This document shows, one piece after another, positions 51,503-64,000 of a stretch of 64,000 bases of DNA; position 1 is the first letter of the stretch, and each line of letters starts with the position of its first letter. The stretch covers positions 2,283,333 through 2,347,332 of the forward strand of contig CAVVXN010000005.1 in the NCBI GenBank assembly GCA_963752285.1, given 5' to 3'. The DNA comes from an uncultured Planctomycetota bacterium (GTDB lineage Bacteria; Planctomycetota; PLA2; JAEUHO01). A program made the translations under genes and the position numbers. The notes under the pieces were generated by a model. The model did not search any database. It saw only the letters and a list, made by a program, of their open reading frames with translations, and had not been told where the DNA came from.

Positions 51503-52843
51503 CTACGTGGTGCGCGCCGACGCCGGACGCGGGGCGGCGGTTCCGCGCCGTCCCATGCCGTGGTGCTCGAAACCAGCGGCCTCGAGCCTCTTCGAGTCGT
51601 AGAGGTTTCGCCCATCGAACACGACGGGCGTGCGGACGAGTCCCCGCAGGCGGTTCCAGTCGGGCTGACGGTACTCGTTCCATTCCGTGCAGAGGACGAT
51701 CGCGTCCGCGCCCTGGGCGGCCTCGTAGGGGCCGGGCGCGTATTCGATCTCGACGGGGACGACAGCCCGGAAGCCCGACTCCGCCTCGGGGTCGGTCCCG
51801 ACGACCGACGCACCGGCCTCGACCAGGGCCTCCGCCACCACGAGGGCCGGCGCCTCGCGCACGTCGTCGGTCTGCGGCTTGAATGCCAGTCCCCAGAGAG
51901 CGACACGGCGGCCGCGCAGGTCGGGGCCGAGACGCTCCTTCACCTTGTCGGCGAGCCGCGCCTTCTGCTGATCGTTGATGCGCTCGGTCGCGGTGACGAT
52001 CTCCATGGGAACGCCGTACCGATGGCCCACGTGGATCAGCCCTTGCGTGTCCTTGGGAAAGCACGACCCGCCGTATCCGCAGCCCGAATAGAGAAAGGCG
52101 GGCCCGATCCGCGAGTCGCTGGCGAGACCGCGGCGCACCTGCTCGATGTCCACGCCCACGGCGTCGCAGACGCGGGAGATCTCGTTCATGAACGAGATGC
52201 GCGTCGCGAGCATGGCGTTCGCGGCGTACTTCGTGAGCTCGGCCGCCTGGTTGCTCATGCGGAGGATCGGGCGCCCGGAGCGCACGAAGGGGTCGTAGAG
52301 CTCCTGCATGACCTCCCAGGCGTGGTCGTCGTCGGTTCCGATCACGACGCGGTCGGGACGAAGGAAGTCATCGACCGCGGCCCCCTCTTTCAGGAACTCG
52401 GGGTTGTTGACCACCGAGACCGGCCGCTCCGTCCGCGACACGGCGCGGTCGCGGACCCAGGCCGCGGTGCCGACGGGGACCGTGCTCTTGAGGACGAGGA
52501 CGAGGGGGCCGTCGGCGTGCTTCACCACGTCGTCCACGGCCGCACCCACGTACTGGAGGTCCGGCGCGCCGTCGGGTCCCTCCGGCGTCCCGACCGCGAT
52601 GAAGACGACCGCGGCCCCCTTGACGGCCACAGCGTGGTCCGTGGTGAACGCGATCCGGCCCTCGCGCTGCGCACGGTGGAGAATCGGCTCGAGGCCGGGC
52701 TCGTAGATCGGGATCCGGCCGGCCCGGAGGGCCTCGACCTTGCCGGGCACCGTGTCCACGCAGACCACGTCGTGGCCGGTGTCGGCGAAGCAGACCCCCG
52801 CCACGAGCCCGACGTACCCGGTACCGACCACTCCGATCCGCAT
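51503..52843 (-). CDS. ugd: UDP-glucose 6-dehydrogenase
   Basis: GTGYVG, KSTVP, NPEFLKEG, GYGGSCFPKD, GLAFKP. Confidence 0.93.
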   Translation of the reverse strand: MRIGVVGTGYVGLVAGVCFADTGHDVVCVDTVPGKVEALRAGRIPIYEPGLEPILHRAQREGRIAFTTDHAVAVKGAAVVFIAVGTPEGPDGAPDLQYVGAAVDDVVKHADGPLVLVLKSTVPVGTAAWVRDRAVSRTERPVSVVNNPEFLKEGAAVDDFLRPDRVVIGTDDDHAWEVMQELYDPFVRSGRPILRMSNQAAELTKYAANAMLATRISFMNEISRVCDAVGVDIEQVRRGLASDSRIGPAFLYSGCGYGGSCFPKDTQGLIHVGHRYGVPMEIVTATERINDQQKARLADKVKERLGPDLRGRRVALWGLAFKPQTDDVREAPALVVAEALVEAGASVVGTDPEAESGFRAVVPVEIEYAPGPYEAAQGADAIVLCTEWNEYRQPDWNRLRGLVRTPVVFDGRNLYDSKRLEAAGFEHHGMGRRGTAAPRPASARTT

Positions 52844-53520: not shown

Positions 53521-54588
53521 ATGCCCTGGCTACGCTCGCGAACGGAACGCTCCACGGGTCTCACGACCTGGGCCATCGAGTGGCGCGAAGGTGGCCGCAG
53601 GGCAAGGTGCGCCACCGCGTCGCTCGGCCCCATCACCGAGAAGGAGGCGCAGTACGAGCTCGCCGCGATGAACGCCGGCAAGCGCACGCGCCGCGGCGCC
53701 GACGCAGACCGCCGACCCCGAAGCGCGCCGTCGCCGAGTACCTGAAGCACCTCAAGGTCTCGGGCCGCCGCCAGGGCACGCTCGACCACGACGCCGACAA
53801 GCTGAAGCCGCTGCTCGACGAGTGGGCCGAGCGCCCGATGGCGCGAGTGGTCCCGCCCGATGCTGGAGGCGCTCGCTCGAGCGCGCGCGGGTGGTCGCCC
53901 AGCCGGGTCCGCCAGGCGCTCGGCGTCTACCGCCGCTTCATCGCCTGGTGCGGCGCCGTGGGCTACGCGTGCGGGGACTTCGTCGGCGAGTTCAAGCCGC
54001 CCCGCGCCCGCCCCCTCGAGCACCGCGAGGCCCTCTCCGCCGAGCAGTGCCGCCGCCTCCTCGACGCGGCCCGGGGCCACTACCTCGAGGTCCCCGTCGC
54101 CCTGGCCCTGTTCACCGGCCTCTCCCGGGCCGACCTCCGGGCCATCACCTGGAAGGAGGTGGACCTGGACGGCGGGTTCATCACCCGCCCCCGGTCCAAG
54201 ACCGGCCGCCCCCTCCGGCTCCCCATGTCGGAGCCCCTCAGGGAGGTCCTGGAGCGCCACCGCCAGCGCTCGGGCCGGGTCTGCCGCCGCCTCCCGAAGT
54301 CCGATTCCTCGCTCTACAAGGCCCTCCACCGCCTCATGGACCGGGCCGGGGTCCCCCGGAGCGGCTGGCACCAGCTTCGCCACACGCGCCGCCACGCTCC
54401 TCGCGGCCGCGGGGATCGACGTGGCCACGATCGGGCGGATCCTCGGGCATCGGCCGGGGGCGTCGTCACCTTGCGGTACCTTCACACGGACGATGCCGCG
54501 GCTCCGGGAGGCCGCGGAGGCGGTTGCGAAGGCGGTGTCGCAACGCATGGCGCGGAGGCAGCGAATTGACCGGCGAACGAGGCCCTAG
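53521..54588 (+). CDS. Tyrosine recombinase/integrase (several frameshifts)
   Basis: Reconstructed across frames: MPWLRSR...WAIEWREGG (arm-binding-like), LALFTGLSRADL, RSKTG, HQLRH, ILGH, TLRYLH. Confidence 0.88.
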
Positions 54589-54601
54589 TGGGCGGAGCAT
54601 C

Positions 54602-56247
54602 TTGAAACTCATCGACACCATTGCGGCGAACAAGCTGCGCGGCGGCTACTACACTGCCCGCCCAGTTGTGGACTTCTGCATCCGCAGGGTAACGGGCGCT
54701 GATGCGAAGTCGAGGAGGGACCAACTGCATGGCTTGAGCCTTCGGCCGGTGATGGTGCGTGTTCTCCGAGGACTCGCTGGAGGCCCGGGACCATCGCGTA
54801 ATCGCCCCACCTACGGTAACGGCGGTCGAGCTAGACCGCGGCGAGGCCACCAAGTGTTCGAGGATCGTGCGGGAATCTGGCATGGCGGGTTCTGTGTCGA
54901 GTCAGTGCTTTTTCGAATGGGGCGAACGTCACGCCGCACGTGTTCGACGCGGTGAGTTGGCAACCCGCCGTTCGTTCGCTATCAGTTCGTCGATATCACG
55001 CCAGCGCGAGCTGTTCGAGCGTCAGGCGCAGCGCTTTGGGCATCAAACTTGGTGGCGTGTCCAACCTCTGGATCCCGTTCGCTATTCTCAGCCTCTCACG
55101 ACTAGAGGCAGGCGGGGCGTTTGCATTGGTTCTTCCAAGCGAATTTGTCTCCACGGTCTCTGCGGGGGTTTTCCGTACGTTCCTCGTGCGGAACTTCGCC
55201 ATCGCCCAAGTGGACCTCTTCCCGCGAGACACGTTTCCGGAGTTGCTCCAGGACGTGGTGGTCCTGAGCGGGCGGCGTGCCTGCCGCACCGCACCGTCGC
55301 GCCGCGTGGCTTTCTGCGAGCACCAAGCTGGTCTCTGAGACCCATTGGAAGCACAGCATCTCAGGACAGGGCGCATCTCGTGGACGCAGTACCTCCTGAC
55401 CGAGGATGAAGTGACTGCTTTCGATGCGGTACGGGCGTCTGCCGACCATCCACCAGCTTGGGGAAGTGGCTCGGACTCGAGGTCTCGACCGTAACCGGGT
55501 GCCAATTCGTTCTTCACTGTTGACGACCAGAGCGCGAGCTGCACACGAACTAGACCCGTGGGCGAGGCCATTCCTCGCACGGACCTCCGACTGTCCCGGC
55601 ATTGTCTTCCGCAAGGCTGACCATCGCGCAGCCCGCAAAAATGGAAGTCGGACTTGGATTCTCGACTTTTCCGCTGACCGTCCAGCTCCTATCAATGGGG
55701 CAGTCGCGTACATGGCCGGGGGCGCGGCAGAGGGGCTCCCCGCGCGTTACAAGTGCCGAATCCGAGAGCCTTGGTACCGCGTTCCACACATCAAGGTCGG
55801 CCGACTACTACTGACTAAGCGAGCGCATCTCTATCACCGCCTACTATGCTGAACGAGGCCAGGGGTTCTGACGACTGACACGATCTATCGGGGTGAAATG
55901 CTCCCTGGATTCACGGCGAGGGCATCAGGACCTTGTGGCTGGCTTCCAGAACACAATGACGCTTCTCTCTACTGAATTGGAGGGCCGTTCCTACGGCGGC
56001 GGAGTACTTGAGCTTGTCCCATCCGAGATTGCACGATTGCTCGTACCGCTCGTTGATATGCGCTACGATCTACCCAAGCTGGATCTCGTGAGCCGGGCGC
56101 GGCGGGGGGACAACGCGACGAATTGGAGACGGTATCCGCCGGGAAGTGGACGCGTGCATCGCCCGCCACCTGCCGGGCTTCGCTGATCTGCTCCCACCTC
56201 TCGAGCGTGCTCGATCTCGCCTCTTGGATCGTCGCCTCCGTTCCTAG
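54602..56247 (+). CDS. N6-adenine DNA methyltransferase, gamma class (several frameshifts)
   Basis: Across frames: KLRGGYYT, WLEPSAGDGA, AVELD, GNPPFVRYQ, NLWIPF, YKCRIREPWY, ELEGRSYGGGVLELVPSE; ends LDRRLRS*. Confidence 0.85.
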
Positions 56248-57412
56248 GGCGCCCAGCTCCGGACGTTCTTCGGTGATCGTGATCGAGTAGCTACCGTCCT
56301 CGTGGCGTTGGATCACAACCCAGTTTCCGACTCGGGAATTGGCCCGCAGCCAAGCGATAAGGTCTCTCCCCCAATGCAGATGTGTGACGATGTTGGCTTG
56401 CGCCGATTCGCGCGACGGCTTGTGGCTGACCTTCAGCGTACGCTGCTCCGGATCTCTTCCTGGAAACGCAATGGTAAACGTAACGTGGCACTCCTGCTTC
56501 TCGCCCACGTCGATCCAGGTCTTCGAGCTCCAAGAACCCTCACGGAAGTAGGTCGCCGCGTGATGCCCCAACCTGCCCGCGATAGGCCGAGGATCCCGCG
56601 CACATTCGAGTTTGGGTTGCTGGGCTGCTGGGCGTCGTTCCTCGGAAGTCGCTTGCACCAACGAAGGTGCTGGACAAGCACGCACCCCTTGAGGGCCTCT
56701 CCGGCCTCTGCGATGACCCCGGCACCTCCTTCCTCACCCGTCCGCGTGGGGATGGCGCCGTAGTGGACGCCAAAGGCGCGCGACTCGCAACCCCGCTGCC
56801 CACCGCGCGCCGCCTCGGTATCGGCACGCGCGGCGGCGCGACTCGCACGCCGAGCGCGCTGGCGGTCACCAGTACACCGCTCCACGAGCAGTGCGTCGAG
56901 TCCTCACGGACCCTGATCTGGAATACCCCATCCTCGGTCCGGCGGGCCCAGGCGTCGATCGCGTCGGCTAGCGCACTAAGTGCCGACGTCGCTACCATGC
57001 CCGAGGATGACTCCTGCCTCGATATTTCGGCCAAGCCCGGCCTCGGTCAGATTGGCGGACCCAACGTAGCCGGCTGCCTTCCGTCGGGCCCGACCAGATG
57101 AATGGACTTGGGATGGAAGAGAGCGCTTCCCGCACAGCTAACGATCGTCAGGGATCGCCGGGCGGGGTCGGTGAGCAGCGGGACAAGCGCGTCAACGTCC
57201 TCGATGGTCGGCTGCTCCGGAGCGTTCGACCCGAGTACCAGCCGCACGACTTCGACTCCATCCAGTACTTCAAGGTGATCACGCAGGAGCCCAGGGAGAA
57301 GAAGCCCGTCTCGGCAACGGAAGCTCCGCACGCCCGCGACCAACTTCGTACGGAGCCAATTCCCGAGCGCGTCCTCGGGGCGGCCCCTGCTTGAGTCCAA
57401 GTACTCGACCAT
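56244..57412 (-). CDS. Phospholipase D-superfamily nuclease with C-terminal putative DNA-recognition domain (frameshifted; 3' end approximate)
   Basis: VRLVLG, FHPKSIHL...GYVGSANLTEAGLGRNIEAG (HxK...GSxN...NxE); C-terminal WCKRLPRNDAQQP...SHKPSRESAQANIVTHLHWG. Confidence 0.8.
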
Positions 57413-57696
57413 GGCATCGAGCGTATTCCCAGAACGGGTGTCGCGCTGAGGGAGACCTCGGAGGGGACCGGTCGCGGCAGGCACGCAACCTGTCCGGAAC
57501 AGCACTCCAGCCGCCCTACCCGCGAATCCCGCCGCCATCGGCGATGCGGTTCCAGTCTGCGCCCGGCAGATCGCAGGGGATGTGAGCTCGCTTCTTCGCG
57601 GGGCCGGATGCCTCTGCGGATAGGTGCTCGCGAATGGCCAGCCGCACGGGGGGGTTGGGCCACGTAGGATGTAGGCCCACGGAGGCCAACTAGCCC

Positions 57697-59721
57697 GTGG
57701 ACACGCGTCGAGTCAGAGACTACTGACGAGAACATCCGGCAGCAGTACCAATGCGGGCCGAAGGTGGCCGTCGAGGAACTGATCTGGAACGCGGCTGGAC
57801 TCCGGAACCGACATTGTTGAGGTCGTTCACGAGGCGACGCCACTTGCGTCGGTGACCGCCATCGAGGTCCACGATCGGGGCGTCGGAATTCCCCTTGCCA
57901 TGTTGGACCGGGCGTTCGGTACGCTCGGGCATCGATCAAAGTCGACGCGTCCCGCACGGCACCTGCGGATGGGCGGTCCTTCCACGGATCCGAGGGGCGC
58001 GGTCGCTATCGCGCGCTGGCACTCGGTCAGACAGCGACCTGGCGCACGAGATACCGCGAAGGTGGGCAGACCTGGGCCTACGAAATTGTCCTGAGTCGCG
58101 GCAGCGAAGTAACTACGAGCGTCACAAAGGCCCGTCAAGGGCGAGTGGCAGTGCGACCGGAACGGTGGTACGAGTCGAGGGGATCGATGACGGACACCTG
58201 GCACTCCTTGCAGGCGAGATACAGGAGTACCTGACTCGGCGTCTTGCACTCTACCTTGTCAGCTACCCAAGCGTACGCGTGAATACGGCGAGGAGTGGGA
58301 ACGATCCGGCTTCTCAGATTCAGCGATCCGAAGAAGAACCCTCCAGCCCATCTCGTCAGACCTGCAACGGCCGCGGATCCGCCTTGTTGAGTGGACATCC
58401 AGCATGGGCGCGAAGACGATTTACATGTGCGATCCCACGGGCTTCGTTTGCGCCGGAAGTCCGCGCTGGTGTTCAGACTCGAAGCCTTCGACTGCTCGGC
58501 GTTCGTCTCGTACGAAGACGTTCCCCGGTGGACCGCTGCGACACATGATTGCGCTTGCCGACCTCGGCAACGAGCAGAACGAGGTCAAGAAGCTGATCGA
58601 CTCCGCGCGAGACGAGATGCGGAAGTATGTGAAGGAGCGGTGGCCGAAGAACGCCGAATCTCGTGGATGCATGGAAGGAGGAGCACAGCTATCCATTCCG
58701 TCGAGACCGAGCCCGACACGCCCGTCCTCCAAGCGGAGAGGCAGGTCTTCGACATCGTTGCGTCCCGCGTCCACCAGTACAACTCAGGCTTTCGCGATGG
58801 ACAAGTCGGCCGATCGGCGGCTAACCCTCGGCTTGCTCCGGCAGGCGCTGCAGGCCGGGCCCCTCTGACTTGAAGCGCATCCTCGAAGAAGTGCTGGCCT
58901 TGCCCGACGCGCAGCGCAGGGAGTTGGCGGACATCCTCCAGAAGACGAATCTTTCCGCTTTGGTTTCGGCCGCGAAGACGGTCTCGGATCGCATGAGCGT
59001 CGTAGAGGGACTCGACCACATTCTTTTCGACGAGGACTGGCGCGCGCGACTGCGAGAGCGCACGCAGCTCCATCGACTGCTCGTGCACCATCAGTGGGTC
59101 TTCGGCGACGAGTACACTGTCGACACCGATGATGAGGGGCTAACCCAACTCCTCAAGCAGCACGTCAAGATGCTTGGCCGGGATGAGCTGGCGCCAGACG
59201 TTCACGTGGATCAGATCGACGGGCGAGGCGGGATCCCCGACCTCATGCTCTCCAGGAAGTTCAAGCGCGATCGCGGAGCATTTGAACACCTTGTCGTCGA
59301 GCTCAAAGCGCCCGTCAATCTCGTTGGGTGCAGACGAGATCAACCAGATCGAGAACTACGCGTTCACGGTCTTGGCGGACGATCGGTTTTCGAAGACAAG
59401 GACGGACTGGACCTTCATCCTGATCGGTACATCCTGGTCACCCTTCGCAGAGGAGAAGGCAAATCAGGATGCACTCCCCTACGGGACCCTCCACCAGCGC
59501 GGAAACGTGCGGATCTTGTTGCGCCGTTGGAGCGACGTCCTTTCAGAGGCGCGCCACCGATACGAGTTCTTCCGAGAGAAGCTGCAGATCGAGGTCTCGA
59601 AGTCAGAGGGTCTACGGTACCTGCAGCAACGACATCATGACCTGCTCACTGGGAAGGGGCTGACCAAGCGTCAGGAAGCGGCCAGTCAGGAGGCATCGGA
59701 AGCTGAGGCGGCCTGCCCTAG
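57697..59721 (+). CDS. GHKL (MORC/MutL-type) ATPase fused to a C-terminal PD-(D/E)xK nuclease (frameshifted; 3' end approximate)
   Basis: AVEELIWNALD, IEVHDRGVGIP, HGSEGRGRY; C-terminal ERTQLH...WVFGDEY...IPDLML...VVELKAP...EINQIENY; GGAGG RBS at 57681. Confidence 0.8.
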
Positions 59722-59754: not shown

Positions 59755-60040
59755 CTACCGCGCCAGCATCGCGATCGCCGCCGCCACCGCCACCCCGACG
59801 ACCCACGCCACGATGCCCCACTTGAGCCGGTGCTCGCCGACGGCGGCGAACAGGCGCATCACGCTGCTCCTCCAGGGCGCCGACGCGGGCCTCGACGTGG
59901 GCCGCCTGCGCCCGGACCTCGACGACGGACTGGGCGGCCCACTGGTCGTGGCGCCCCGCCCAGTCCTCGATCCGGCGAATCCGACGCTCGGGGTCGTCGG
60001 ACTCGGCGGGAGCGAACGGGGGGCCACGATCGAAGCTCAT
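59755..60040 (-). CDS. Small coiled-coil protein with C-terminal TM helix (holin/XhlA-like architecture; one frameshift)
   Basis: ERRIRRIED...EARVGALE, then KWGIVAWVVGVAVAAAIAMLAR*; ATGA overlap with the upstream gene. Confidence 0.6.
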
Positions 60041-60794
60041 GCTCCCTTGAGCACGCCGGCCGAGTGCAGCGCGGCCTCCAGGGCGTCGAGGCGCGACGGA
60101 GCGTCCGTGAGGCGCTCCTCGGGCTCGAGGCGCCCGCCGGTGCCCACGAACGGCGCGTCGTCCTGGCGGGCGACGACCTCCCGGCTCTCGCGCTTGGCCT
60201 CCTCGAGCACGGCCTTCGCGTCGCGCTTGCGCTTCTCGTTGAGGACGAGCAGGAGCCCCGTGCTGAGCGCCCAGGAGATCAGCCCCCAGGGCGAGGTGTC
60301 CTTCGGGCCCTCGACGTCGAGGCCCTGGCCCTCGGCATCGCGCCAGGCCTGCTCGGCCTTCGCGAGCCGGTCGTTGGCGGCGGTCACGCGCGCGGCGAAG
60401 TCGTCCGTCCAGGCGCGCGCACGTTCGGCGCGCTCCTTCGCCTGGGTCGCCTCCGTCGCGGCCTCGGTGGCGCGCCGGCGCGCGCGATCGAGGTCATCCT
60501 GCGTGGCCTCGCCGGCTGCAACCTGGCGCTCGAGGTCGGCGACGGACGCGGCGGCCGCCGCACGGGCGGCCTCGGCCTCGGCCGCGAGTCGGGCCGCCTC
60601 CTGGGTCCGCTCCTCGGCGGCCGCGACCTCGGCCTGGGCGGCCTCGATCTGCGGGCGACGGCGGGGTCCGGCGGCGGGACGGCGGGCTTGACCCCGACGC
60701 CGAGCTCGACCCCCTGGCATGCGGCGAGGCCGGCCAGGAGGACGACGGCGAACCCGGCGTAGCGGGAGCCCAGGGCGGCGCGGAGGGCGGTCAC
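60037..60794 (-). CDS. Lipoprotein with long coiled coil and C-terminal TM helix (u-spanin-like topology; one frameshift)
   Basis: FAVVLLAGLAAC lipobox, Pro-rich linker, Ala/Glu-rich helix, WGLISWALSTGLLLVL followed by NEKRKR. Confidence 0.65.
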
Positions 60795-61141
60795 GGCTGC
60801 CCCCCGTCGCCAAACGTGGGCGCCTCGGGCGCGGCCGGCGCGGCGGCGGGGACATCGCCCGGCCGGCAGGCCCCGCCCGGACAGGGCGCGTCCTGGGCGC
60901 CCGGGGCCGCGGTCGCGGGCGTGGCCACGGGGCCGGCTCGGCCGCCTTGCCGGTGCGGAGCCCGTACCGGCCCAGGTCGAGCCGGGCGGCGCAGCCGACG
61001 CCGTCCTCGGGGCCGGCGAAGACGCGGGCGCCGCCGCCGACACCGGGCTGCAGGTCGAGGGCGCTCGACGGGCCGGGGCCGGACTGGCAGGCAGAGAGAA
61101 GAACGAGTGCGCAGAGCGCGAGAAGAAGCCAGCGGGCGCAT
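60791..61141 (-). CDS. Small Pro/Gly-rich lipoprotein (frameshifted)
   Basis: GGAGG RBS, RWLLLALCALVLLSAC lipobox, tail ...CPGGAC...PEAPTFGDGGQP*; GTGA overlap with the next gene. Confidence 0.6.
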   Translation of the reverse strand: MRPLASSRALRTRSSLCLPVRPRPVERPRPAARCRRRRPRLRRPRGRRRLRRPARPGPVRAPHRQGGRAGPVATPATAAPGAQDAPCPGGACRPGDVPAAAPAAPEAPTFGDGGQP

Positions 61142-61307
61142 GCGAAACCTCCGGTGGGAGTTCGCGCCGCTGGAGAGGCGCTCGGTCGTGTGCGAGAGAG
61201 GATACCACCGGGGACCCCGCGGTCAGCGGGGCTGCCCAGGGTGTCCCCCGCGAGGGTACGAGGGGGGTGGGCGCTGAAACCGTAGAGGCAGCGCTTGCGG
61301 AGGCGCT

Positions 61308-61541: not shown

Positions 61542-64000
61542 TCACTCCTTCTTGATCCACTCGTAGCCGGGCGGCGGCGGGAGCATGCCCATGAGCATCG
61601 GGTCGGGCGACCAGCCGGGAGGCATCGGGCCCGCGAGCGTGTCGTGGAGCACCGCGCCGCCAGGCTGCACGTGGTCCGCGTTGCCGGGCGTGGCGCCGTC
61701 GGTCATGTGCGAGGCCGGCAGCTGGTTCGTCCCGTCGTCGAGCTGCTGCGCGCTCTCCGGGATGAAGTCCTGCGGCACCGGGTGCGGCTCGTAGTCGCCG
61801 CCGTTCGTGCCCGTCCCCGGGCCTCCCGCGGCAGGCTGCACGTGCTCCCAGGTGTGGCCGCCGCCGTACGTGCCGGGCGCCGCGGGCGCGGGGCGGAACA
61901 GCTCCCCGTGCCGTCCTCGAACACCTCGCCGCCGGGATCCTCCAGGTCGTGCGGCACGAGGCCGAGCGCGCCCTCTGTGGCGTGCTTCTCACCGAGCACC
62001 GTGGGCGGCACCGTGCTCCCGGGCGGCAGGTCCACGGGCCCCGAGCCACCGGGCGGGAAGTAGAGCCCGCCGTCGGGCGCCACGGCACCGGGCACGCCGA
62101 TCTCGCCCGTGAGCGCGCCGTCGGCGTCCACAAGCAGGGTCTTGCCCAGCTGCTGCGCGAGGCCCTGGATCAGCGAGAGGAGGATCGGCATCCGAGCCGC
62201 CGTCGGCGACGCCGTCGGGCGCGCCGCCGAGCCCGCCGCCCTGGTCCCACGGCGTGTCCGTGAAGCCGCCCATCCCGTCGCTCCACGTGCCCGCGTCCGG
62301 GTCGTAGGTCCAGAGCGTGCCGCCCGGGTCCATGTAGGTGACGTCGCCGGTGTCGGGGTCGACGGAGAAGTCGCCGCCCTTCTGGAACTCCAGCAGGTCG
62401 AAGAGGATCTCCAGGATCTCGAAGATGATCTCGATCTCGATCTTGAGGTTCGTGGTCTTGCCGCCGCCGCTCGGGCGCGGGAACACGACGCGCTCGGCGC
62501 ACACGGGCGTGGGCGCGTCCTGCCCGATCTGCTGCCCGTGCGAGGAGAGGCAGGCCATCAGCTCTTCGAGGCGCTGCGTCGCGGTCTTCTGACGCTCGGC
62601 CCGGTGCTTGGCCATGAGCGCACGGCGCAGCGCATCGAGGTTGAAGCGCCCCGAGGCCTTCGTGCCGGCGAAGACGCGCGTGATGGTGTTCTCGACGTCC
62701 CACTCGACGGCCACGACCGAGAGCGTCACGCCGTCGAGGAACGAGAAGTCCCGCGCGCCCGTCGTGTCCACGAGCTTGAGCGTGCGCCCGAGGCCCGCCC
62801 ACTGGGTGTCGAGCACGCCCTTGATCTCGATCTGGACCTCGTAGGCGAGCTCGCCGAAGAGCCCGAGCAGGTCGTCGGCCACGGCGGTGAACGCGGTGAT
62901 CATCGCGGCGGAGCCGTCGAACTGCGGGGCGTTGAGCCCGTAGATCCGCATGACGGCCGGGTCGCCGCGCCCGGGCTTGCCGCCGCCGTTCCACTTCGCG
63001 CTGTCGGTCGCGTAGGCCGTGCCGCGGAACCCGCCTCGGGGACGCGCAGCGTCGGCACCCACGGGAGCGTGCGGTCGTAGGTCGGGACCTCGATCTTCAC
63101 GATGGCCTGCGCCGTGGCCTCGGCGTTCCCCTCCTCACAGGGGTTGGCGGGCTCGGCCGGGGGCGTCAGGTAGTTGATGAGCCCGATCGCGGGGAGATCC
63201 AGCTCGACCTCGGCGGGGCGCGAGGGGTCGTCGGGCGTCGTCGTCGTCGCCTTGGTCTGGATCTCCATGTTGCCGAGCTTCACGGAGACCTTCGCGCAGG
63301 CGTCGGGCGCGATGCCCTTGTCCGGGTCGCTCAGCGTGAAGAGCCGCCCCATGATCCGGTGGCCGTTGTCCCGGCCGCCGCCCTTCGCGTCGCCCTCGAC
63401 GTCGAACGTGTCGCCCGGGTTCGGGCCGCCCGCCTGCCACGGGCCCGTGAGCTCGAACTCCAGCGCCGTGTTGTCGTTGACGCGGTAGGCGTTGCCCGAC
63501 TCGGGGCCCGACGTGAACCGGAGCAGCCCCAGGTACCACTCGTGCGCGTCCATCTCGAAGGGCGCGTCGGGCACCATGGTCACGGGATCGCCGGCGCCAG
63601 CCGAGGAGAGCACGGCGCCCGAGTCCTTGTTCTTCCAGCTCTTGGCCTGGTCGTGCGTGCCCTCGAGCCCCGCGTCCCAGCCTGCGTCGAGGCCTCCGCC
63701 GCCGCTTTCGAGCTCGGACATGGTCGTCTCGGGGCGGTCGCCCCGGACCTCGACGGCAGTGAAGTTGTCGTCCGGGTTGACCTGGATCTCGCCGGTCACG
63801 TGCTGCGAGCCCACGTCGACCTGCGTCTCCGTGCCCGAGGTGCGGTCGTAGAAGCGCCACTTCCGCGTCGCGGGGTCGATCTTGCAGGCGAACTTCGTGA
63901 ACGAGAGCAGCGTCTCGATGCCGGCGTAGACGTCCTGGCTCGCGGACATGCCCGGCACCTTGGTGGTGATCAGGTCCAGGTCCGCCTGCTCGTAGGGCGC
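61542..64000 (-). CDS. Large phage tail/baseplate-hub-like structural protein (5' end outside window; at least 3 frameshifts)
   Basis: Track ORFs 62900-63958, 61989-63062, 61703-62191 and 61542-61841 join into one acidic Gly/Thr/Asp-rich protein with IDPATRKWRFYDR, DNFTAVEVRG, LRFTSGPESG...GDTFDV and LSVVAVEWD. Confidence 0.6.

Follow-up and report, generated by a model that had tools for sequence, protein, structure and literature searches.

The window, as the whole stretch of 64,000 nucleotides analysed here is called, comes from an uncultured Planctomycetota bacterium and carries a frameshifted copy (a pseudogene) of a conserved Planctomycetota prophage gene. This gene, the target of the analysis, is the middle member of a translationally coupled trio, lipo1-target-TM94. 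The trio is carried by HK97-like temperate siphophages of one Planctomycetota family. The initial annotation proposed the target as a candidate new type of spanin, a single-chain helical protein spanning the periplasm. The trio is probably not the device with which the phage breaks the outer membrane. We tentatively favor another reading over the spanin, namely that the trio may be a moron-type accessory envelope module of the lysogen, transcribed on its own and possibly acting in exclusion. The positions of the features in the window are collected in Table 1.

Table 1. Features of the prophage remnant in the window
Feature	Position	Strand	Remarks or basis
Tyrosine integrase pseudogene, two frames	53521..54494	plus	homologues match Pfam Phage_integrase; at the opposite end of the remnant
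Lower-GC cargo island (0.55-0.70 G+C)	54500..59700		between integrase and trio; no family match
TM94 pseudogene	59755..60040	minus	1-nt insertion at 59865; ATG overlaps target stop (ATGA)
Target pseudogene (252-aa protein in intact copies)	60037..60794	minus	GTG 60794-60792, stop 60039-60037
Conserved 66-aa C-terminal tail, predicted cytoplasmic	60040..60237	minus	alignment, AF2 model, dN/dS 0.24
Hydrophobic anchor, residues 169-186, K-R-K-R cluster after it	60238..60291	minus	sequence, dN/dS 0.11
Predicted periplasmic helical region	60328..60665	minus	AF2 model of homologue P0004, heptad pattern
1-nt deletion site, third base of codon Arg48	60652..60653		alignment and GC3 frame plot; frame A to frame B
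Predicted signal peptide and lipobox L-A-A-C, codons 1-26	60717..60794	minus	Cys26 = 60719-60717
lipo1 pseudogene	60791..61141	minus	2-nt deletion after 61126 and a second frame change; stop overlaps target start (GTGA)
Conserved non-coding leader of the trio	61142..61226	minus	alignments of 17 loci
Tail-fibre-region gene	61545..62191	minus	single ORF in L033; in the window two tblastn segments, frames -1/-3
Large tail protein relative (24-26% identity)	62484..64000	minus	cut by contig end

In the window the target is divided between two frames of the minus strand. Frame A, which starts at the GTG codon, encodes a signal peptide, the lipobox L-A-A-C with Gln at position +2, and a linker rich in Gly, Val, and Pro. 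Frame B, which runs to the stop codon, encodes about 110 helical residues rich in Ala, Glu, and Arg, the 16-residue hydrophobic segment W-G-L-I-S-W-A-L-S-T-G-L-L-L-V-L followed by N-E-K-R-K-R, and the 66-aa tail. Third-position GC marks the coding frame in the 73% G+C DNA found here, and this signal moves from frame A to frame B at about 60620-60680. DNA alignment places the break more exactly. The base after 60653 is absent from the window and present in all six homologous loci. Gene callers report at this place a truncated ORF of 227 aa (P0003), which starts at an out-of-frame ATG (60720). The initial annotation had repaired one frameshift near 60655 and had listed a lipobox, a Pro-rich linker, a helix of roughly 110 residues, a hydrophobic segment, a positive cluster, and a tail. 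Both the position and the listed elements are correct, because the translations of the two frames, the GC3 switch, and the six-locus alignment agree.

The target is a real protein-coding gene under purifying selection. A search of 5.8 billion proteins with the frame-B translation gives 68 matches, all from Planctomycetota MAGs or metagenomes; 35 of these are exactly 252 aa and five are 251 aa long, and the others are fragments or fusions. Lipobox, helix, and hydrophobic segment are found in a single ORF in 12 of 14 fetched sequences, the two exceptions being the 227-aa call from the window itself and a read-through with a truncated N-terminus. The lipobox and the coiled-coil/TM part are therefore not separate genes; separate genes would have undone the original proposal. 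Cys26 and Gln27 are invariant in all 23 aligned full-length sequences, and the ORF is intact (251-252 codons) in 18 of 18 extracted copies. Pooled over the pairs formed by 16 intact copies, dN/dS comes to 0.21; two copies of 251 aa were excluded so that the codon alignment had no gaps. Each domain is constrained: dN/dS is 0.06 for the lipid-Cys and linker, 0.31 for helix 1, 0.13 for the turn and helix 2, 0.11 for the hydrophobic segment, and 0.24 for the C-terminal tail.

An AF2 model computed from the alignment has a mean pLDDT of 77.7, with values above 90 across residues 44-150. It has four helices, at residues 44-93 (helix 1), 99-156 (helix 2), 169-209, and 226-245. The turn at residues 94-98 carries the nearly invariant motif V-A-A-G-E-A-T, of which A-G-E is invariant. 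In the best register, L, I, V, M, F, W, or A occupies 86% of the heptad a/d positions in helix 1 and 94% in helix 2. The claim of a helical rather than beta-rich periplasmic part is borne out by these helices and heptads, set against the u-spanins as they are presented in the accessible text of PMC6139136. The hydrophobic segment and the beginning of the tail fall within the helix at 169-209. As a C-terminal transmembrane domain (TMD) this segment is short (best 15-residue Kyte-Doolittle mean 1.95), and the K-R-K-R cluster and 66 more residues come after it. A PDB fold search with the model finds only generic antiparallel helical bundles and BAR domains, none at E <= 0.001.

These elements suggest the following arrangement, in which the signal peptide and lipobox are called by pattern inspection. 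The intact 252-aa protein would be exported and lipid-modified at Cys26, and its C-terminal hydrophobic helix would provide a second hold in the inner membrane. The heptad helices of about 50 and 58 residues, joined by the A-G-E turn, would lie in the periplasm and the conserved tail in the cytoplasm. By arithmetic, the 113 helical residues would measure about 17 nm when extended, or up to about 27 nm with the linkers of 17 and 12 residues. Folded as a hairpin, they would measure about 8 nm and bring the two anchors together at one end.

On sequence comparison the target family is narrow and new, without known relatives. Pfam, PHROG, and NCBIfam hold no family that matches the target, and tblastn against 50,697 phage records finds nothing; nor is a relative found in the viral contig collection. 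PADLOC gives only a sub-threshold coiled-coil match to LmuB (E 0.0096, 12.6 bits). A profile search of 1.84 billion cluster representatives returns one full-length cluster and fragments, and the nearest ESM Atlas clusters are unnamed and 83-96% viral, with a score of 0.89 at a lead threshold of 0.9. All 15 genome loci of the target are in Planctomycetota MAGs, with several copies per genome. Within the order, the target is present in eight of 40 genomes and five of 24 genera. It is found in seven of 28 genomes of the window's family (the window genome excluded) and in none of 11 genomes of the sister family. Such a patchy distribution is expected of a mobile gene or cargo.

The HK97-like siphoprophage that carries the trio is seen at loci L001, L002, and L010, the last extended by L016. 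Its gene order begins with HNH, small and large terminase, portal, S49 protease, capsid, connectors, and tail chaperone, and continues with a gp10-like gene, a 658-aa tape measure, a 1526-aa tail protein, a fibre-like gene, and a DUF2460-like gene. The trio comes next, followed by variable cargo and a tyrosine integrase on the reverse strand. Thus placed, the trio closes the tail operon and lies on the strand of the late operon, and its starts overlap the preceding stops by 4 nt. A complete prophage was sought in order to locate the lysis genes: the copy at G001:C40 runs into the end of its contig, those at G002:C2 and G001:C59 are remnants, and an order-wide scan adds no further genomes. The capsid search gives only distant phages. 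There is no close isolated phage for comparison of gene order, because the capsid matches reach only 24-31% identity.

The two neighbors of the target are fixed members of the unit. lipo1 (103-117 aa when intact) encodes a lipoprotein with two invariant Cys, in which a Gly-rich segment is conserved and another region is rich in Pro and Ala. Of the 29 loci that extend far enough upstream, all but L004 (28 of 29) have it directly upstream of the target. TM94 encodes 94 aa predicted to form one long helix (residues 17-93, pLDDT 82), of which the last third is hydrophobic. Among the 27 loci that extend far enough downstream, TM94 is an intact gene of 94 aa in 12, truncated or frameshifted in nine, and undetected in six. 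Neither set of loci consists of independent cases, as some are near-identical lineages. A complex prediction for target residues 27-168 with mature lipo1 (20-113) scores 0.01 and counts neither way. The TM94 family is as narrow as that of the target, with 75 matches, all named "hypothetical protein" and all with the organism label Planctomycetota or Planctomycetia. Kinship of TM94 with XhlA-like proteins or holins was considered and rejected, the sole match being phrog_937 "hemolysin" for one of 12 members at E 0.12. That TM94 is split by integration and rejoined on excision was also rejected; no separate 3' halves are found.

Upstream of the trio is a conserved leader of about 85 nt. It contains a GC-rich palindrome of the GGGGnCCCC type, a TATCCT/TATGCT box, and a GGAGG ribosome-binding site. 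The leader accompanies the trio in 17 of 17 loci, in at least four different upstream contexts; in L010, for example, the ORF upstream of it is on the reverse strand. Scans near the trio give no sigma-70-type promoter and no terminator, and the box is a conserved motif only. A structure of the leader RNA has no covariation support because the predicted pairs are invariant save one.

In the window, this prophage is most likely a decaying remnant cut by the contig end at 64000, because the trio, the integrase, and the fibre gene all carry frame breaks. The large tail gene aligns as two segments 17 nt apart, with a probable frame change near 63040-63060. Two host genes tested give full-length, single-frame alignments, and no domain match elsewhere in the genome is interrupted by a stop. 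The cargo island was also considered as the site of a Shedu-like nuclease, which is not supported by any Pfam or PADLOC match.

The constancy of the leader, whatever lies upstream of it, is one of the observations that point to an accessory module with transcription of its own. Another is the location of the trio, where the tail genes give way to the variable cargo arm beside the integrase. The target also stays intact in remnants without structural genes (both copies of L003, L009, and L007), and in L007 it does so between two truncated neighbors. The conserved cytoplasmic tail and the cargo-like distribution are consistent with such a module, and so is the result of the lysis-gene search, in which no lysis-partner families appear among the scanned proteins though the host has peptidoglycan synthesis genes. 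The most plausible action of the module would be to obstruct DNA entry by related tailed phages, or otherwise to alter the envelope.

Several points weigh against the accessory module. The trio is co-oriented with the late operon and coupled internally, and the promoter-like leader box is a conserved motif for which the sigma-70 consensus scan is empty. The window copy and its neighbors decay together, so this host, at least, is not keeping the module. One MAG holds two nearly identical prophages (L001 and L002, with target proteins 94% identical), which argues against strong exclusion of close kin. Lysis genes may lie in the early region of the phage, which is seen only in part. Finally, neither PHROG nor PADLOC places the target in a known defence or exclusion family, PHROG giving no match and PADLOC nothing above threshold.

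Prophages are known to encode envelope proteins that block superinfection, such as T5 Llp, phi80 Cor, TP-J34 Ltp, and HK97 gp15. These are small lipoproteins or membrane proteins whose genes lie near those for tail or receptor-binding proteins or in accessory regions. The prophage expresses them, and remnants often retain them. Unlike the target, none of them to our knowledge combines a lipid anchor, a TM helix, and a helical hairpin, and we know of no other exclusion protein with this architecture. Nor is any of them a three-gene coupled unit like the trio, and no homology to them is found with PHROG or PADLOC.

The spanin originally proposed is a doubtful alternative to the accessory module. 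As a helical unimolecular spanin (u-spanin), the target would have its lipid in the outer membrane and its C-terminal helix in the inner membrane, with the helices spanning the periplasm. After degradation of the wall, the helices would collapse into a hairpin and pull both membranes together. lipo1 would then be an o-spanin-like helper and TM94 a holin of class III type or a trigger.

Kongari et al. 2018, in the part of the text that is accessible, describe 58 u-spanins in 13 families with T1 gp11 as the prototype, and define a u-spanin by a signal for an outer-membrane lipoprotein together with a TMD at the C-terminus (PMC6139136). The predicted topology of the target matches this definition. 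The same text reports that periplasmic Cys is absent from all 58 known u-spanins (PMC6139136), and the fetched target sequences have none either. The two heptad helices and the conserved turn resemble the CC1-linker-CC2 of Rz as described there (PMC6139136). By pattern inspection the lipobox (L-A-A-C-Q) has Gln and not Asp at +2. The host is diderm, with two Omp85 matches and with LspA and Lgt present, and the carrier is a phage by its TerS, TerL, portal, capsid, tape measure, and integrase. lipo1 is small, Pro-rich, and o-spanin-like with its two invariant Cys. Many temperate siphophages keep their lysis genes between the tail genes and the integrase, which is where the trio is found.

TM94 also has the gross topology of a known holin. 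According to the accessible text of PMC12894885, phiKZ gp142, a class IIIb holin, has an N-in TMD, a helical cytoplasmic domain of about 70 aa at its N-terminal side, and a very short periplasmic end, and TM94 likewise would have a cytoplasmic N-terminal domain and one TMD. TM94 differs from phiKZ gp142 in that it shows no sequence similarity to it, is predicted as one continuous helix, is often truncated beside an intact target, and has no adjacent endolysin.

The genes around the trio speak against lysis. Endolysin, holin, and spanin families are found neither next to the trio nor in about 32 kb of prophage, in which the early region is seen in part. The scan covered 12 proteins of L002, 20 + 22 of the most complete prophage, 32 of prophage fragments elsewhere in the genome, and 8 + 13 window ORFs. 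Among them only the DUF2460-like tail protein receives a "glycoside hydrolase" label, through a weak PHROG match (E 3e-4 to 1e-3). In the accessible text of PMC6139136, u-spanins are located in lysis cassettes; no cassette with holin and endolysin is recognizable at L002, at L010/L016, or in the window region. That no other spanin is found in the scanned prophage counts in favor of the spanin. Still, spanin function is without contextual support because no endolysin, holin, or spanin family is found in the scanned prophage. The first proposal is supported in part: its architecture and its diderm host are borne out, and its lysis function is doubtful.

Other features of the trio are unlike those of described spanins. 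A conserved cytoplasmic tail like that of the target is in no spanin described in the accessible text of PMC6139136, and the trio adds two membrane-protein partners, a leader of its own, and the persistence of intact target copies in gutted prophages. The order of the genes is reversed: here the coiled-coil gene follows that of the lipoprotein, and the accessible text of PMC12894885 places o-spanin genes always downstream of their i-spanin genes. Two of the three loci whose tail module is complete, L001 and L010, carry a truncated TM94, and the hydrophobic segment of the target is short for a membrane-spanning anchor at 16 residues. LolA is undetected in the host, a weak point against the spanin in a genome that is 89% complete and with a family that detects only three of seven diderm controls.

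The two known types of spanin offer further comparisons. Like u-spanins such as T1 gp11, the target is phage-encoded, has no periplasmic Cys, and belongs to a diderm host (PMC6139136). Unlike the u-spanins in the accessible text of that paper, of which the T1 gp11 family is beta-rich, it has two long heptad helices in place of beta strands in the periplasm (PMC6139136). It also differs from them by the 66-aa tail after its anchor and the missing endolysin/holin cassette, and it has no sequence kinship to a u-spanin family in PHROG, Pfam, NCBIfam, or the phage records. The trio has in common with lambda Rz/Rz1 a centrally broken periplasmic coiled coil and an adjoining gene for a small, Pro-rich, Cys-containing lipoprotein. 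However, the target is not an i-spanin of the Rz type. Its putative TMD is C-terminal and not N-terminal, its N-terminus is a lipobox that makes the coiled-coil protein itself a putative lipoprotein, and lipo1 is upstream, neither embedded nor downstream as Rz1 would be.

A fuller version of the spanin proposal would make the target a single-chain, helical, class-I-like fusogen, with a lipid anchor as in Rz1, a CC1-turn-CC2 hairpin as in Rz, and a C-terminal anchor as in T1 gp11. Its setting would be a three-gene lysis cassette that lacks an endolysin, carried by phages of Planctomycetota, and its partners there would be an o-spanin-like lipoprotein and a tail-anchored holin of class IIIb type. 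We consider this combination unlikely.

More improbable is that both the lipid and the TM helix of the target sit in the inner membrane, from which an 8-nm hairpin would project into the periplasm. In a complex with TM94 such a protein could time or regulate permeabilization, as in a holin/antiholin pair, or sense the periplasm. The start of helix 1 and the end of helix 2 would be side by side in the hairpin, and the linkers are short (17 and 12 residues). The hydrophobic segments of target and TM94 share the pattern W-G-x-x-x-W-x-x-x-T with small-xxx-small spacing, both proteins have conserved helices predicted to be cytoplasmic, and the two genes overlap by 4 nt. However, 15 of the 27 loci that extend far enough downstream have an intact target with TM94 missing or truncated beside it. 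A Gln at +2 does not, by the E. coli rule, cause retention in the inner membrane, and the Gln of the target is accordingly no retention signal.

Very improbable is an artefact, either unrelated ORFs of a GC-rich genome or an assembly-error frameshift in a live gene: high-GC DNA does yield long spurious ORFs, and the window's indels are read from the assembly with no matching read run (none holds more than 0.12 of the words sampled from the window sequence), but single 252-aa ORFs occur in dozens of independent assemblies at a dN/dS of 0.21, at least six frame breaks cluster in neighboring prophage genes while the two host genes tested are in frame, and two of the indels, a deletion of 2 nt and an inserted A that is not in a homopolymer run, are atypical of read errors.

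Virtually nothing is known of how phages of Planctomycetota cross or break the unusual envelope of their hosts, and our literature search found no paper on spanins in Planctomycetota and none on a helical unimolecular spanin. Proteins of the target family would be anchored twice, just as a bridge between two membranes requires, and their helices resemble those of Rz. If the target is a spanin, the beta-rich design of known u-spanins would not be obligatory, and the protein would offer a minimal single-chain model of membrane fusion. If, as we tentatively favor, the trio is an accessory or exclusion module, it would represent a new architecture among prophage-encoded envelope proteins.

The gene trio made up of lipo1 (a small Pro-rich lipoprotein), the 252-aa lipobox protein, and TM94 (a 94-aa tail-anchored helix) is preceded by a conserved leader, which is kept regardless of the identity of the upstream gene in the window and 16 homologous loci. 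In this leader, a short GC palindrome of the GGGGnCCCC type precedes a TATCCT/TATGCT box located ~60 nt ahead of the ATG. CCTCC...GGAGG pairing is also present and could mask the ribosome-binding site.

Features of the window adjoining the trio and the integrase
Feature	Position	Strand	Remarks
Non-coding leader of trio	61142-61226	-	Counterparts at 16 loci, among them L002:9588-9662
Lower-GC island	54500-59700		Between integrase pseudogene and trio; GC 0.55-0.70 vs 0.73 overall
436-aa host gene	51548-52843	-	Flanks integrase in window and in L002

In alignments, the hydrophobic segments of the 252-aa protein and its neighbor TM94 (residues 170-180 and 74-84, respectively) have the pattern W-G-x-x-x-W-x-x-x-T in common, and both have small residues spaced i/i+4. 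Based on topology, these segments would be antiparallel in the membrane.

Surroundings of the trio vary among homologous loci. In one otherwise complete prophage (L010), a lower-GC reverse-strand ORF of 369 aa (L010:8500-9609, -) separates the tail genes from the trio. In L001, a truncated TM94 is separated from the integrase by three large ORFs on the reverse strand (534, 1061, and 489 aa; L001:10904-17163). A contig of another genome carries the N-terminal half of the 252-aa protein (residues 1-128; G002:C9:396983-397366) and a near-complete TM94 copy (G002:C9:434177-434443) on the same strand 37 kb apart, as if an insertion or rearrangement had occurred between them.

Beyond the window, the same genome carries repeated prophage fragments arranged as a mosaic with differing orientations (G000:C5:2150000-2206000, loci L045-L047). 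These include HNH, Phd-like antitoxin, ParB-methyltransferase, terminase pieces, DUF2924, and an intact-looking integrase, with IS transposases scattered among them.

Within the window, the ORFs of the lower-GC island, some of which look frame-broken, had no match in Pfam, PHROG, or PADLOC. The island is probably phage cargo. Because the same host gene (70% identity between the window and L002) flanks the integrase in both, the two genomes appear to share one chromosomal integration site.
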